Below, piece after piece: positions 6,940-13,944 of a stretch of 64,000 nucleotides of DNA. The position numbers and the translations under genes are program-made. The stretch comes from Alphaproteobacteria bacterium (GTDB lineage Bacteria > Desulfobacterota > Binatia > UBA12015). The DNA lies in contig JAFMJW010000002.1 in NCBI GenBank assembly GCA_017853315.1, positions 8,818 to 72,817 of the forward strand, in the 5' to 3' direction. Every line of letters starts with the position of its first letter. The first letter of the stretch is position 1. The notes beneath the pieces are model-generated. The model made no database searches, was not told where the DNA came from, and worked only from the letters and a program-made list of their open reading frames with translations.

Positions 6940-7673
6940 CTGCCATGTCATGACCTCCGCGCGGGCGGCACCCCTCCGGAGAACGACCTGGGAGACCCGA
7001 GAGACATCCACCCTCCGACGCGGCTCGGCGCCCTCGCCCTCGCCTGCGCCGCGCGCGCCCTCTCCCCGGGCTGCGGCACGGTCGACACCGTCCCGGCCGC
7101 CGTCGAGTCGAGCTCCGCCGAGCCCGCGATCCGCACCACCGCGGCCGGAGTCTCCTTCGCCCGCACGCCCGACGCCTGCTTCGCGGGCCTCGCCGACTTC
7201 CCGTGGGAGCCGAAGTACGTCGAGATCGACGGGCTCCGGCAGGCCTGCGTCGACGAGGGGCCGCCCGACGCCGCGCCCGTCCTGCTGCTCCACGGGGAGC
7301 CCTCCGCGGCCGCCGCCTACGACGCGCCGTTTCCCCGGCGCGAGTCCATGGCGGGCGTGCGGACCTTCCCGTCGCTCATCAACCAGGTCGGCGGGACGAA
7401 CGAACGGGCCTGGGCCGGCCTGAAGGCCTTCCCGCGGCCCTCGTCGCGATCCGGGCCTCCTGCGACCCCGGGAACCTGGGGCGATTCGGGGCCCGGCAGA
7501 GACTGATCGACGAGGTCCGGGGCGCCGCGGGCCAGCCGCACACGCGGCTCGCCGAGGCGAGTCACTTCCTGCAGGACGACCGGGGCGCGAAGATCGCCGC
7601 CCTCCTCGACGACTGGATCGGGGGCACGTCGGCGCCGGCCGACTTCCCCCCGCGAGGCTGCAGCCTGCCCTAG
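6940..7673 (+). pseudogene. Decayed haloalkane dehalogenase (DhlA/DhmA-type alpha/beta hydrolase) relic
   Basis: Frame 1 reads ...[14 protein letters not shown]...[48 protein letters not shown]. This is joined directly to [24 protein letters not shown], so about 150-170 aa of the core fold are missing. A frame change near 7430-7440 leads into [14 protein letters not shown]...GAAGQPHTRLAEASHFLQDDRGAKIAALLDDWI (frame of ORF 7203..7673). The N-terminal frame has no ATG/GTG/TTG start. Confidence 0.55.
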
Positions 7674-9463
7674 GACACCATCTCGACGACCGAGTCGCCC
7701 TCGTGGCGGAGGATGAACTTCTTGTCCTCCACGAGCTTCCGCTTCGCCGCGCGCTCGACGATGAAGTTGCCGAGGTAGAGCACGTCCATCTCGGAGCGCG
7801 TGAACGTGTTGAACGCGTTCAGCGGCGTCTCGACGATCGGCTCGCCCTTCAGGTTGAAGCTCGTGTTGAGCACGACCGGCACGCCGGTCGCCTGGCCGAA
7901 GAGCTCGATCATGCGGTGGTAGCCGGGGTTGGTCTCCTTCATCACCGTCTGCAGCCGGCCCGAGCCGTCGACGTGGGTGATGGCGGGGATGACGTCCCGC
8001 TTGTCCTCCTTCACCGGCACGACGTAGAGCATGAAGCGCGCCGGGTAGTGCGACATCGCGTTCGGGAGTTCGAAGTACTGCTCGCAGGCCTCGCCGAGCA
8101 CGCTCGGGGCGAACGGCCGGAACGCCTCGCGGAACTTGATCTTCGCGTTCACGACGTCCTTCATCTCGGCCCGCCTCGGGTCGGCGATGATGGAGCGGGC
8201 GCCGAGCGCGCGCGGGCCCCACTCGAAGCGGCCGCGGTACCAGCCGCACACCTTGCCCGACGTCAGGTCGTCGACCACGCGCGAGAAGAAGCGGTCGTCG
8301 TCCTCGATGTGCTCGTAGGCGAGGCCGTTCGACTTCAGGAAGTCCGCGACCTGCGAGTCGCTGTACTCGCTGCCGAGGTAGGCGTGGCCGAGCGGCCCCA
8401 CCCGCGGCTTGCCGAGCAGGTGGTGGTAGGCCCACAGCGCGGCGCCGATCGCGCCGCCGTCGTCGCCCGGGCCCGGCGGGATGTAGATCTGCTCGAAGCC
8501 CGCGTCGCGCAGGATCTTCGCGTTCGCGACCGAGTTCAGCGCGACGCCGCCCGAGAGGCAGAGATTCTTCAGGCCCGTCCGCTTCTGCACGGACGAGGCG
8601 AGCTTGATCATGATCTCCTCGGTCACGGCCTGGATCGAGGAGGCGACGTCGCAGTAGAAGGGATCGAGCGACTTGTCGCCGAGCGCCGGATCGCGCGGCG
8701 GCGCGCCCATGACCTCGGAGAACTTGGGCGCGAGCGTGTTGTCGGGCGAGTAGTGGAAGGCGAAGTGGTCGAGGTCGAGCCAGTAGGAGCCGTCGGACCC
8801 GATCTTGATCATCTTCTTGATGCGATCGGTGTAGTTCGGCGTGCCGTAGGGAGCCATGCCCATCAGCTTGTACTCGCCCTCGTTCACCTCGAAGCCGCAG
8901 TAGGCGGTGAACGCCGAGTAGAGGAGCCCGAGCGAGTGCGGGAAGCGGCTCTCCTGCTCGAGCTCGATCTTCGTGCCGCGTCCGACGCCGACCGTGCCGG
9001 TCGTCCACTCGCCGGCGCCGTCGACCGTGATGATCGCCGACTCCTGGAAGGGCGAGCAGAAGTAGCTCGCGGCGGCGTGCGACATGTGGTGGTCGCAGAA
9101 CAGGATGCGCTTGTTCTCGACGCCCAGCTTCTCGCGGATGAGCGGCTTGATCCAGAGCTTGTCGGTCACCCAGCGGCGCATCGACTCGCGGAAGACCCGG
9201 TGCGAGCGCGGGAAGGTCGCGAACGCCGTCGTCAGCAGGCGCTCGAACTTCACGAAGGGCTTCTCGTAGAAGACGACGTAATCGACGTCGTGGATGGTGA
9301 TGCCGCCCTTGGCGAGCACGAAGTCGACCGCGAGGCTCGGGAAGCGGTTGTCGTGCTTCACCCGGGAGAAGCGCTCTTCCTCACCGGCCGCCACGACCAC
9401 GCCGTCCTGGACGAGGGCCGCGGCGCTGTCGTGGTAGTAGAAGGACAGGCCGAGGATGTTCAT
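7670..9463 (-). CDS. Carbamoyltransferase (NodU/CmcH/SxtI family)
   Basis: Start reset to ATG 9463 (MNILGLSFYYHDSAAALVQDGVVVAAGEEERFSRVKHD...). The 597 aa are colinear with the family throughout. The 89-aa N-terminal extension in the track is Arg/Pro-rich junk. Confidence 0.9.
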   Translation of the reverse strand: MNILGLSFYYHDSAAALVQDGVVVAAGEEERFSRVKHDNRFPSLAVDFVLAKGGITIHDVDYVVFYEKPFVKFERLLTTAFATFPRSHRVFRESMRRWVTDKLWIKPLIREKLGVENKRILFCDHHMSHAAASYFCSPFQESAIITVDGAGEWTTGTVGVGRGTKIELEQESRFPHSLGLLYSAFTAYCGFEVNEGEYKLMGMAPYGTPNYTDRIKKMIKIGSDGSYWLDLDHFAFHYSPDNTLAPKFSEVMGAPPRDPALGDKSLDPFYCDVASSIQAVTEEIMIKLASSVQKRTGLKNLCLSGGVALNSVANAKILRDAGFEQIYIPPGPGDDGGAIGAALWAYHHLLGKPRVGPLGHAYLGSEYSDSQVADFLKSNGLAYEHIEDDDRFFSRVVDDLTSGKVCGWYRGRFEWGPRALGARSIIADPRRAEMKDVVNAKIKFREAFRPFAPSVLGEACEQYFELPNAMSHYPARFMLYVVPVKEDKRDVIPAITHVDGSGRLQTVMKETNPGYHRMIELFGQATGVPVVLNTSFNLKGEPIVETPLNAFNTFTRSEMDVLYLGNFIVERAAKRKLVEDKKFILRHEGDSVVEMVS

Positions 9464-9728
9464 CGTATGGGGGTCCCCTGGGCCGCTCCGGCGGGGCCGG
9501 GGAGGCCTCTCCACCCGCGGCGAGCGTGCGAATCTCGACGCTACCGAAGGGAAATCGGGGCGACAACCGGCGCCCCGCGAGCATCGGGGGCCCGCGGGGC
9601 GGACCCGTCGCGGTCGCGACGGCCCGCCGAACGCCCGCCCCGACCTCGGCGAGCCTCCGGCGCCGGGCGGCCGGGCTCGGCCGCCCGCCCGGTTGCGCAC
9701 CCCGACGGCCCGCCCGTAAGCGGCACCC

Positions 9729-12689: not shown

Positions 12690-12920
12690 TCATCCCTGGC
12701 GATGGGCCTCGGGCAGCGTGTCGTTCTCCTCCTGCCAGGGCAGGAAGGACGAGTCGGCCGGTCGGCGCGTGCGCAGCGGGTCGGAGAGGAGCCTGCCGAC
12801 GAGCGCGACCGGCCCGAGCAGGACGTAGTAGAGGGCGCCCAGGATCAGGTTTCCGACGACCTCCCCGAAGCGGTGCAGGAAGGTCACGGCGGACTGAAGG
12901 AACGTCGGGGTCTCATCCAT
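12690..12920 (-). CDS. Small membrane protein resembling the C-terminal half of the SxtJ family
   Basis: 76-aa ORF containing FLHRFGEVVGNLILGALYYVLLGPVALVGRLLSDPLRTRR...FLPWQE. This resembles the SxtJ-family helix followed by R-L-L-G-x-D-P-L, from memory of the family. It stops 4 nt before the next start. Confidence 0.45.
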   Translation of the reverse strand: MDETPTFLQSAVTFLHRFGEVVGNLILGALYYVLLGPVALVGRLLSDPLRTRRPADSSFLPWQEENDTLPEAHRQG

Positions 12921-13080
12921 GGTGGCTTGGGTCCGTGGCCGCAGGCGGCTCGGGTCGCGGGAGCGGGCCGCGCCGACACGGCCCGACGCTCCGATCTTGG
13001 CACTTCCGATGGAACGCTGGCTTAGCAGGCCGGCGCGAACGCGGCACCCCCGGGCGCCGCGTCCCGGGCCCGCGCGTCGG

Positions 13081-13944
13081 TCAGGTGCCCGGGCTCCGGA
13101 ACAGCGGCAGGTTCGCCGCCCGGGCGGCCTGCACAGCCTTGTAGCCCCACCAGATCGGCGCGTGAAACCATTGCGTCGGCCCGTCCCACGGCTCCGTGGG
13201 AGCGGTCAGCCGGGACAGGTCCGCCTTCTTCGCGCACAGGAACGCGCGACGCAGCCCGATCTTGTAGCGCTTCGACCCGTTCCAGTCCGAGAACTCCGGC
13301 TTCAGGACGACGCCCTGGTAGCCGAAGTTCTGCACCATGTCGCGGATCGCCTCCTTGGTGGGCGAGCTCACGAGCTCGTACTCCATCGTCGCGCGCGGGT
13401 CGTTCGTCGACTCGCGGCGGTAGCGCAGGAAGGAGCCGGGCAGCCGGATGATGCCCGTGTCGATGACGAGCACGTCGCTGTTCACGCGCGAGATGAGTTC
13501 GATCAGGTTCACCGGCTTCGCGATGTGGTACATGAGGCCGAAGCAGAAGACGACGTCGAACGGCGCCCACTTCGAGAGGTCGACGTCGTACAGGTTGCCG
13601 ACCACGAAATCGTAGCGGCTCTTGTCGATCCCCTTCACCTCGAAGACGAAGTTGGCCTGGTCGGCGTGCATCTGGCGGCCGTCGACGCCGAGCACGAAGT
13701 CCGCGCCGGCCTCGGCCGCGTTGAGCGACCAGAAGCCGGCGTTGCAGCCGAGGTCGAGGACGCGCTTTCCCTTCAGCGAGCCGCCGAAGAGCTGCACGAC
13801 CGGGTCGAAGAAGTAGCGCTTGCGCTCGCGGTGCCGGACGATCCACTTCTCGCGGAAGATCGGGGTGAGGTTCCCGGCGAGGTCGAACTGGTAGTGCCAG
13901 CGCGGGAAACTCGCGATCTTCGCCCGGATTTCTTCCTGGTCCAT
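13081..13944 (-). CDS. Class I SAM-dependent methyltransferase (CmoB/DUF1698-like)
   Basis: Start reset to ATG 13944 (MDQEEIRAKIASFPRWHYQFDL...). The SAM motif is KRVLDLGCNAGFWSLNAAEAGADFVLGVD and post-I is FCFGLMYH. 287 aa. Confidence 0.8.
   Translation of the reverse strand: MDQEEIRAKIASFPRWHYQFDLAGNLTPIFREKWIVRHRERKRYFFDPVVQLFGGSLKGKRVLDLGCNAGFWSLNAAEAGADFVLGVDGRQMHADQANFVFEVKGIDKSRYDFVVGNLYDVDLSKWAPFDVVFCFGLMYHIAKPVNLIELISRVNSDVLVIDTGIIRLPGSFLRYRRESTNDPRATMEYELVSSPTKEAIRDMVQNFGYQGVVLKPEFSDWNGSKRYKIGLRRAFLCAKKADLSRLTAPTEPWDGPTQWFHAPIWWGYKAVQAARAANLPLFRSPGT

Follow-up and report, generated by a model that had tools for sequence, protein, structure and literature searches.

In saxitoxin gene clusters, sxtI, sxtJ, sxtK and sxtL are consecutive. 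The saxitoxin papers either give SxtJ and SxtK no known function or have them act "in conjunction with" SxtI, and they describe sxtL as encoding a GDSL lipase, a predicted hydrolase for which a decarbamoylase role has been proposed; the nearest relatives of sxtL, as of sxtI, sxtJ and sxtK, are found in Lyngbya and Trichodesmium. Here we analyse a related locus at positions 7670-13944 of a 64,000-nucleotide stretch of contig JAFMJW010000002.1 (assembly GCA_017853315.1; the whole stretch is called the window, ~72% G+C). The DNA comes from an uncultured freshwater bacterium, and the closest protein relatives, in a homologue search with the fusion protein described below, carry the label Candidatus Binatia. 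The locus represents, in a fused variant, a module that is very widespread but uncharacterised and that, like sxtI-J-K-L, brings together in one block an O-carbamoyltransferase (CT), SxtJ, the SxtK (DUF5989) microprotein and a GDSL/SGNH protein. The saxitoxin block parallels the whole module by gene order, and SxtL is placed in the module by order alone; a search with the Lyngbya SGNH protein for a protein named SxtL returned more than 120 near-identical Microcoleus proteins and recovered no SxtL. Non-toxin loci of Oscillatoriales have the same order, CT-SxtJ-SxtK-SGNH. Unlike the saxitoxin block, the window has its SxtK fused to the C-terminus of an SGNH protein by way of three extra helices, only the C-terminal half of SxtJ, a second, inverted SGNH copy and no toxin genes among the genes neighbouring the cluster. 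The module in the window is of a housekeeping-like kind, and its target is probably a surface glycan.

The other close parallels are the MBOAT-SGNH acyl shuttles (DltB/DltX/DltD, PatA/PatB and AlgI/AlgJ/AlgX). The published acyl-shuttle motif, FXYXXF, forms the extreme C-terminus of DltX and of the MBOATs PatA and AlgI (NgPatA ends FIYANF), and in these systems the Tyr takes up the acyl group and passes it on to the active-site Ser of its anchored SGNH partner, a transferase. The motif-bearing part is a microprotein with a single helix in DltX and a pair of terminal helices in PatA; it works with an SGNH transferase that is anchored by its N-terminus, and the target is an extracytoplasmic polymer. 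The window shares with these systems an extreme C-terminal hexapeptide with an invariant Tyr, and its SGNH domain finds its best solved matches in AlgJ and AlgX, SGNH-like transferases paired with a motif-bearing MBOAT. Unlike them, it has no MBOAT; the candidate donor is a soluble, adenylate-forming CT together with a small protein, SxtJ; the motif belongs to the same chain as the acceptor-side enzyme and not to the donor side; the transferred group would be carbamoyl and not acetyl or D-alanyl; and beyond the motif no sequence homology could be detected.

The CT has full-length homology to, and the same two-domain organisation as, TobZ, NovN, GdmN and NodU. These enzymes work alone on small molecules, whereas the subfamily found in the window almost always occurs with SxtJ and DUF5989. 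A precedent for the relay proposed below is HypF of hydrogenase maturation, which has the same YrdC/Kae1 domain chemistry as the CT: it makes carbamoyl-adenylate, and the carbamoyl group is then placed on the C-terminal residue of its partner HypE, within a flexible tail. There the acceptor is a C-terminal Cys thiol, the reaction is cytoplasmic and no membrane or SGNH step takes part. The crocagin cluster resembles the window in its SGNH protein CgnD, carbamoyltransferase CgnI, methyltransferase CgnL and a peptide that has a Tyr close to the C-terminal end. Unlike in the window, the crocagin enzymes are soluble and the precursor is not a membrane protein, and CgnB, CgnC and CgnE have no counterpart in the window.

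The reading that we prefer, and to which we give an even chance, is that the genes together specify an O-carbamoylation relay at the membrane, on the plan of the MBOAT-SGNH acyl shuttles but with a soluble CT in place of the MBOAT. The CT would make carbamoyl-adenylate in the cytoplasm from ATP and carbamoyl phosphate, like TobZ, NovN and GdmN. Docked at the membrane on the SxtJ-like protein, it would then carbamoylate the hydroxyl of Tyr515 in the tail of the fusion protein, and the resulting O-aryl carbamate would be an activated carbamoyl donor; aryl carbamates carbamoylate serine hydrolases. The tail would offer the carbamoyl-Tyr to the SGNH domain of its own chain (Ser94/His340), and in trans SGNH-A, possibly together with a third copy at ~36.3-37.5 kb, could also take it. 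Finally, the SGNH enzyme, by way of a carbamoyl-Ser, would move the group to a hydroxyl of an extracytoplasmic glycan. Each of these chemical steps is inferred, as are the outward orientation, the acceptor and above all the route by which Tyr515 would meet the cytoplasmic CT; the analysis itself shows the identities of the genes, the conservation of the catalytic residues, a Tyr motif that is invariant and terminal, the architecture of the fusion and the co-localisation counts. The features of the locus are listed with their strands (aa, amino acids; ORF, open reading frame).

7670-9463, minus strand: CT, 597 aa, with Carbam_trans_N and Carbam_trans_C domains
9464-9728, no strand: divergent intergenic region between the CT and SGNH-A genes, coordinates from the ORF listing
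9729-11144, plus strand: SGNH-A, 471 aa, with an N-terminal membrane anchor, an SGNH domain and a Pro/Ala-rich tail, without DUF5989
11129-12685, minus strand: SGNH-B fusion, 518 aa, with an anchor helix, an SGNH domain, a three-helix membrane bundle and a DUF5989/SxtK module
11546-12583, minus strand: SGNH catalytic domain of the fusion, about aa 35-380
11291-11539, minus strand: three transmembrane helices of the fusion, aa 383-465, joining the SGNH domain to the DUF5989 module
11132-11290, minus strand: DUF5989/SxtK module of the fusion, aa 466-518, comprising an amphipathic helix, a transmembrane helix and the tail
11132-11149, minus strand: C-terminal hexapeptide FIYTLF, aa 513-518, with the Tyr515 codon at 11141-11143; candidate carbamoyl-shuttle motif
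12690-12920, minus strand: short SxtJ-like membrane protein, 76 aa, assigned by an SxtJ match and profile comparison
13081-13944, minus strand: class I S-adenosylmethionine-dependent methyltransferase, 287 aa, with a Methyltransf_9 core

All five genes that the initial annotation of this stretch had drawn between 7670 and 13944 are real, stand at the coordinates given here and are kept in related strains; they are supported by the ORF listing and by a third-codon-position G+C of 0.89-0.96. Its interpretation, a carbamoyltransferase cluster with SxtJ- and SxtK-like membrane pieces and two SGNH enzymes that modifies an extracytoplasmic glycan or lipid, is partly supported: largely right, incomplete, and wrong on the methyltransferase.

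The DUF5989/SxtK tail that it had recognised in the fusion protein is borne out. DUF5989 (PF19451) matches residues 470-518 at 42.5 bits (threshold 27), and the isolated segment scores 48.1 bits. The family comprises at least 7,993 protein clusters at 90% identity (E ≤ 0.001) across many phyla. Elsewhere its majority form is a free-standing microprotein of ~50 aa, and UniRef names such members SxtK; here the module is instead the last 53 residues of a 518-aa protein. Its tail is the most conserved part of the fusion protein, which ends FIYTLF, followed directly by the stop codon. The fusion architecture and the tail are common to 118 of the 120 homologues listed, down to 39% identity, all 118 ending in F[I/V]YTLF and the two exceptions being truncated proteins. 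Among the free-standing members, the top 120 all end in FxYxxF.

Two samples of loci were assembled from other genomes. The first, started from the SGNH/DUF5989 side, holds 83 non-redundant loci from many phyla; since its genome-contig scan patterns included APFIYTLF, the motif itself, it is motif-biased, and its motif counts were not used as evidence for invariance. The second was run to remove this bias and holds 80 metagenome loci, collected with patterns from the CT only (45-87% identity), in which DUF5989 was detected by a model minus its last eight columns and thus blind to the motif. In this CT-first sample the Tyr is present in 57/57 complete DUF5989 ORFs. Their C-termini are distributed as follows.

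FIYTLF: 20
[A/S]FIYPI: 13
FIYTIF: 7
FIYALF: 4
FIYSLF: 3
FVYTLF: 3
FIYAIF: 2
single variants: 5

The tail consensus is F-[I/V]-Y-x-x-F, with the exception of the shorter [A/S]FIYPI variant. In that subfamily the Tyr lies three residues from the end, not four, and Ile replaces the terminal Phe; it was seen in 13 metagenome loci (e.g. L120, L123, L131, L134, L137, L141-L148, L150). Because the adjoining Thr varies (T/A/S/P), the Tyr is the only invariant hydroxyl in the tail; Thr516 was considered as the carrier residue and rejected, the position being A, S or P in many members. Across all DNA fetched, 157 of 46,358 ORFs have an F.Y..F C-terminus, and only ~4 of the 157 lie outside DUF5989 or MBOAT proteins; such an ending is thus rare in the background.

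Free-standing DUF5989 proteins have one transmembrane helix, with Lys plus Arg at 4.8 on its N-terminal side versus 0.009 on its C-terminal side. Since the charge lies on the N-terminal side, an N-in, C-out orientation is predicted, as for DltX, which these proteins also resemble in length (~50 aa) and in having a single such helix; helix counting and charge distribution (the positive-inside rule) place the tail of the fusion on the same side of the membrane as its SGNH domain in the predicted topology. The C-terminal FxYxxF tail, overlooked by the initial annotation, would by analogy with the published shuttles give the SxtK-type protein a concrete candidate role. Its match to the FXYXXF pattern, with the Tyr in every complete member of the motif-blind sample, is one of the grounds for the proposed relay.

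Additional DUF5989-type microproteins were seen directly downstream of the fusion in the Planctomycetota loci L013, L014, L018 and L098. Those of L014, L018 and L098 are 42-44 aa long, and the copies of L014 and L098 score 25-31 bits on DUF5989. Their C-termini diverge yet fit FxYxxF (PFSYTIF, PFTYALF and PFFYNIF; AFCYCLF in L013). In L003 a second copy of 54 aa is without the motif.

By its sequence, the CT is a soluble O-carbamoyltransferase of the TobZ/NovN/GdmN/NodU type, in an SxtI-like subfamily, as had been proposed from the first inspection (NodU/CmcH/SxtI type). It scores 269 bits on Carbam_trans_N and 229 bits on Carbam_trans_C (thresholds 24 and 27) and aligns end to end (residues 3-577) with the solved NovN (E 4e-100), GdmN (E 6e-93) and TobZ (E 2e-81). 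The motif DHHMSHAA is invariant among seven CTs of such modules, as are H125, H126, S128 and H129 within it; the HHxSHAA motif type is that of the Kae1/TsaD family, and residues 173-330 give a weak TsaD match. The protein has neither a signal peptide nor a transmembrane segment. The reading frame is open back to 9730, but the orthologues are 597 aa long.

In both SGNH proteins the N-terminus forms an anchor helix, and the GDS, N-D and D-x-H motifs are intact. They are paralogues with 31% identity (E 6e-32). SGNH-A scores 31.3 bits on Lipase_GDSL_2 and 22.5 bits on ALGX (PF16822), both slightly below the Pfam thresholds, and 254 bits against an SGNH family model built in this analysis; orthologues stand at equivalent convergent or divergent positions in three other loci (L088, L089 and L106). 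SGNH-B scores 44.2 bits on ALGX (threshold 26.5), with only model positions 20-145 of 268 aligned. Over 101 sequences of the SGNH-B domain, G92-D93-S94, N126/G128, N160-D161 and H340 are invariant and D338 is near-invariant (codons of Ser94 and His340 at 12404-12406 and 11666-11668). The best solved sequence relatives of the family profile are AlgJ (E 3.8e-8) and then AlgX. The AlgJ similarity is confined to the D-x-H half of SGNH-B, and Ser94 precedes D338-x-H340, unlike the order in AlgX and AlgJ, where D-x-H comes before the Ser. Two membrane-anchored SGNH enzymes with an AlgJ/AlgX-like D-x-H-W motif had been proposed at the outset: the paralogy, the anchors and the D-x-H hold for both, and the W holds for SGNH-A only (DNHW), SGNH-B having a T (DWHT). 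That the partners of the motif-bearing tail are anchored SGNH enzymes with intact Ser, Asp and His, and that their nearest solved relatives are AlgJ and AlgX, which O-acetylate polysaccharides, supports the relay.

An AlphaFold2 model of the fusion protein (predicted local distance difference test score, pLDDT, 90.5; predicted template modelling score, pTM, 0.84) gives the order anchor helix, SGNH domain, three transmembrane helices (383-407, 413-440 and 443-465), amphipathic helix, last transmembrane helix and a short terminal helix bearing FIYTLF. Foldseek with this model returned SGNH folds only, the top one being CgnD (E 9e-9), whose sequence similarity to the SGNH domain is marginal (E 0.11). 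The three-helix region has no Pfam match, and a model of the region matches the 16 fused loci and no others. The idea that these helices are the missing N-terminal half of SxtJ found no support; there is no SxtJ match there, and the region model matches fused proteins only. An exact-sequence look-up of the fusion protein found no record.

Loci of this kind frequently carry several SGNH paralogues alongside one DUF5989. Further SGNH genes were also noted at a distance or in other genomes. In the window, a third anchored-SGNH paralogue at about 36341-37489 on the minus strand (Lipase_GDSL_2 36.6 bits, ALGX 18 bits; motifs GDSF, NAGVPGYGFDQ and DIHLAPEGN) stands alone beside a CstA gene, 23 kb from the cluster, and could be a further acceptor-side enzyme on the same shuttle. 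In Trichodesmium erythraeum IMS101 (L061, 7.4-21 kb), a single DUF5989 gene precedes six paralogues of this SGNH family, all within 14 kb. In Oscillatoriales (L082, 11085-13748) and 13 other cyanobacterial loci, two tandem N-terminally anchored paralogues of 441-443 aa, without a Pfam match, follow the SGNH gene; these could be additional transferases.

The 76-aa ORF upstream of the fusion is, judged from profile comparison, homologous to SxtJ but short, corresponding only to its C-terminal half. On the SxtJ model (PF19588) it scores 18.7 bits against a threshold of 24.4 and matches positions 59-99 only. In the loci of cyanobacteria and proteobacteria, the ORF that separates the CT from DUF5989 is a long SxtJ form of ~135 aa, and such forms score 38-58 bits with positions 1-99 matched, while the ORFs of 69-80 aa in Binatia, Planctomycetota, Acidobacteriota and Chloroflexota match only the C-terminal module; most short forms score 16-22 bits, and two of five tested gave no match. 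An hhalign comparison of the short-form profile with that of full-length SxtJ nevertheless gave 98.9% probability (E 3.5e-17). Membership of the SxtJ family, as first claimed, therefore stands as homology to the C-terminal module, at half length and below the Pfam threshold; the two N-terminal helices of full-length SxtJ are absent. An exhaustive search yielded 55 representative relatives of 62-179 aa, the match being C-terminal in the longer ones, and no natural CT-SxtJ fusion was among these 55. Conserved positions of the family are G19, P37 (35/35) and D47 (34/35)-P48-L49, and there is no conserved His. The ORF ends 4 nt before the TTG start of the fusion gene, and the two are likely to be translationally coupled; in the related loci examined, relatives of the small ORF are always directly upstream of the fusion.

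Gene neighbourhoods support the claim that SxtJ and SxtK accompany such CTs elsewhere. In the SGNH/DUF5989-first sample, DUF5989 was found in 81/83 loci and a CT-family gene in 75/83; the three loci with full flanks and no CT are all from Binatia. Of the CT-first loci, 26 have at least 3 kb on either side of the CT, and near the CT in these are DUF5989 (23/26), SxtJ (24/26) or both (22/26), with DUF5989 usually directly adjacent to its CT and SxtJ partners. Three contexts chosen by free-standing DUF5989 alone all contain CT-SxtJ-DUF5989 in a row. From these counts, the CT-SxtJ-DUF5989 triad is the conserved core of the module, and SGNH proteins are frequent partners, often in multiple copies. 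In the window, the SxtJ-like ORF and the fusion are adjacent, and the inverted SGNH-A gene separates them from the CT, at a distance of 1.7 kb. Neither an MBOAT nor an AT3 gene was found among the genes neighbouring the cluster (window 50-28385) or in most related loci, and the near-obligate triad in loci that mostly do without an MBOAT is a further argument for the relay.

The contexts also fit an extracytoplasmic glycan as the target, as had been suggested initially. Two of the three contexts chosen by free-standing DUF5989 lie inside exopolysaccharide loci, one of them with a priming transferase, an exosortase, GDP-sugar enzymes, Wzx, Wzy and glycosyltransferases; the third adjoins two SGNH genes and an MBOAT. 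Glycosyltransferases occur in 21/83 of the SGNH/DUF5989-first loci and a GDP-mannose dehydratase in 16/83, from at least five phyla. The recurrence of such polysaccharide genes (Wzx, Wzy, glycosyltransferases, exosortase and GDP-mannose dehydratase) supports a relay that would deliver to a surface polymer. Where an MBOAT does stand beside the triad, it has a tail of its own: a Pfam-annotated MBOAT immediately next to it in one locus (L095, 8183-9580) ends FIYFQF, and MBOAT-like ORFs, recognised by sequence only, in two loci of Nostocales (L053, 5162-6712; L055, 5023-6675) end FVYFQF. That these adjacent MBOATs carry their own motif also speaks for the relay; in these three loci, the MBOAT and the CT triad may be two parallel shuttle-type systems on the same polymer.

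Several observations weigh against the proposed relay. The CT is cytoplasmic and would depend on ATP, whereas the predicted position of the Tyr is on the outer side of the membrane; the loading step is left without a structural explanation, because a 76-aa SxtJ-like protein is far too small for an MBOAT-like tunnel, and if the tail were alternatively carbamoylated before the last helix inserts, the protein would be single-use. Carbamoyl-serine enzymes are usually long-lived, and turnover would be slow. The nearest fold match, CgnD, is a slow leader peptidase and not a transferase. AlphaFold2 confidence in the tail of the fusion is moderate (pLDDT 62-68), and no sequence homology was detected between the DUF5989 tail or profile and DltX or any solved chain; the likeness to DltX consists of the hexapeptide and the architecture and could be convergent or coincidental. 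Among the CT-first loci with full flanks, an SGNH gene of the same family lies within 6 kb in only 11/26, and several Binatia have the CT and the pair of small ORF and fusion at separate loci. In one Binatia locus (L096) the CT is present without the pair. In two others (L001 and L005, 3.4-11.6 kb), small ORF and fusion follow genes for PBP1A, MlaE, MlaF, MlaD and a tetratricopeptide-repeat lipoprotein, with no CT within 10 kb of the pair, a context that hints at an envelope or peptidoglycan link or at mere synteny.

In a rival reading, the CT would directly carbamoylate a lipid, or a glycan linked to a lipid, on the cytoplasmic side of the membrane, with SxtJ and DUF5989 serving only to tether or orient it and the SGNH proteins acting as periplasmic esterases that edit O-carbamoyl or O-acyl groups or trim them off. 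Such an arrangement avoids the topology problem. It agrees with the characterised relatives NovN, GdmN and TobZ, all of which act directly on the final acceptor, with the prediction in the literature that SxtL is a hydrolase, with the presence of an SGNH gene in only 11/26 of the CT-first loci with full flanks and with the position of the triad just upstream of Wzx/Wzy in exopolysaccharide loci that lack a recognisable SGNH gene. It leaves unexplained, however, why an invariant Tyr should sit in an extreme C-terminal FxYxxF on the predicted outer face. In addition, DUF5989 is fused to SGNH, and not to the CT, in more than 100 proteins, CT-SxtJ fusions were not seen among the 55 relatives of the small ORF, and saxitoxin clusters retain J, K and L although their substrate is a small, soluble molecule. 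On balance we consider direct cytoplasmic carbamoylation unlikely.

The tail could instead carry something else: DUF5989 and SGNH would relay a different acyl group, loaded by a separate membrane enzyme, and the CT would work independently on the same polymer. The MBOATs with shuttle tails that adjoin the triad in L095, L053 and L055 invite this idea, and surface-polymer loci commonly combine several modification systems. Yet those MBOATs already own a tail, positions 50-28385 of the window and most loci offer no MBOAT or AT3 gene that could do the loading, and among the families tested it is the CT and SxtJ that are the most consistent neighbours of DUF5989 (23/26 CT-first loci with full flanks); we regard a different cargo as improbable. 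The CgnD fold match raises the further thought that DUF5989 is a ribosomal precursor whose FIY peptide would be tailored by the CT (here also by the methyltransferase) and cut by the SGNH protein, giving a conserved peptide-derived signal or cofactor. Crocagin, with its core IYW and the enzymes CgnI, CgnL and CgnD, would be the model; CgnD is the crocagin leader peptidase, a CT and a methyltransferase are encoded alongside it, and DUF5989 is small and has an invariant C-terminal Tyr motif, inviting comparison with PqqA and MftA, precursors of peptide-derived cofactors. We rate this very low, because DUF5989 is an integral membrane protein, is permanently fused in many lineages to a 465-aa enzyme, which would make that enzyme single-use, and stands among dominant polysaccharide-gene contexts; the variability of leader and core is also absent, no other peptide-tailoring enzymes recur in the loci and the methyltransferase is not conserved.

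Returning to the carbamoyl relay, its extension beyond this locus is a tentative proposal that we hold to be somewhat more likely wrong than right: CT-SxtJ-SxtK(-SGNH) would be a third transmembrane group-transfer class, beside MBOAT-SGNH and AT3-SGNH, exporting carbamoyl as O-carbamoyl-tyrosine on FxYxxF to surface polymers in many phyla. If so, the tyrosine-shuttle principle would extend from acyl-CoA/MBOAT chemistry to adenylate-forming carbamoyltransferases, and widespread O-carbamoylation of bacterial surface glycans would be predicted. The roles assumed for SxtJ, SxtK and SxtL would be revised, from accessory proteins and a decarbamoylase to the relay and terminal transferase of saxitoxin carbamoylation. 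DUF5989/SxtK is a very large family that has had no known function ever since the saxitoxin cluster gave SxtJ and SxtK their names, and the literature found assigns it no role; recognition of the shuttle motif turns these membrane pieces beside a carbamoyltransferase into a specific, falsifiable hypothesis of mechanism. Literature searches on DUF5989, FIYTLF, DltX with carbamoyltransferase, and carbamoyltransferase with SGNH or microprotein found nothing linking the systems, although subscription papers may hold prior art. Even if the relay is wrong, the strong CT-SxtJ-DUF5989 linkage defines an uncharacterised three-protein unit that merits study.

The methyltransferase gene, which the initial annotation had called CmoB-like and counted in the gene set, fits neither description. 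It scores 49.9 bits on Methyltransf_9 over the Rossmann core only (positions 113-220 of 315), falls well short of the CmoB models NF011650 (54 bits, cut-off 209) and TIGR00452 (48 bits, cut-off 275) and gives 70 bits on TIGR04290 (cut-off 300). It adjoins the small ORF only in close relatives, is 6.8 kb away in L087, and occurs in 1/83 of the SGNH/DUF5989-first and 1/80 of the CT-first loci; with these counts it was rejected as a member of the module, and it is probably an unrelated or lineage-specific neighbour.

The reported inversion of the SGNH gene at 9729-11144, with a 16-bp overlap of its 3' end and that of its paralogue, is confirmed. Positions 11129-11144 are a real convergent overlap of the SGNH-A and SGNH-B genes, and they take in the SGNH-B stop codon, the codons for F, L, T and Y in the FIYTLF tail and a single base of its Ile codon; relatives at 81% and 92% identity have the same overlap of 16 bp. 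The order methyltransferase, small ORF, fusion and convergent SGNH gene is preserved in the same two relatives, and the whole arrangement is present on contigs of related strains from other freshwater metagenomes, with only intergenic stretches replaced. Two such stretches, 9570-9701 and 12973-13081, are occupied in related strains by unrelated sequence of similar length (runs X9 and X19), while the flanking genes are 90-97% identical. The region 9464-9728 presumably holds promoters for both the CT and SGNH-A genes; a consensus-based promoter scan of the locus found no candidate promoter, and terminator-like sites were about as frequent as chance would give. No RNA sequencing run was found to contain the region.

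Long ORFs on the opposite strand (e.g. 7703-13144, plus strand, 1813 aa) were discarded as artefacts of the 72% G+C. The neighbouring genes of the window encode a RecD-like helicase, AAA_27 and DUF1329 proteins, a thioesterase, acyl-CoA ligases and a thiolase; their functions are unrelated, and they were rejected as clues to the acceptor. On the other side of the CT gene, 7090-7673 (plus strand) holds the remnant of a haloalkane-dehalogenase-like gene, with the N-terminal ~60 aa and the C-terminal ~45 aa in different frames and an NF002043 match limited to model positions 256-298. Related strains have ~520 extra bases at ~7300, which indicates an internal deletion in the window, and the 3' end of the remnant overlaps the stop of the CT gene by 4 bp.

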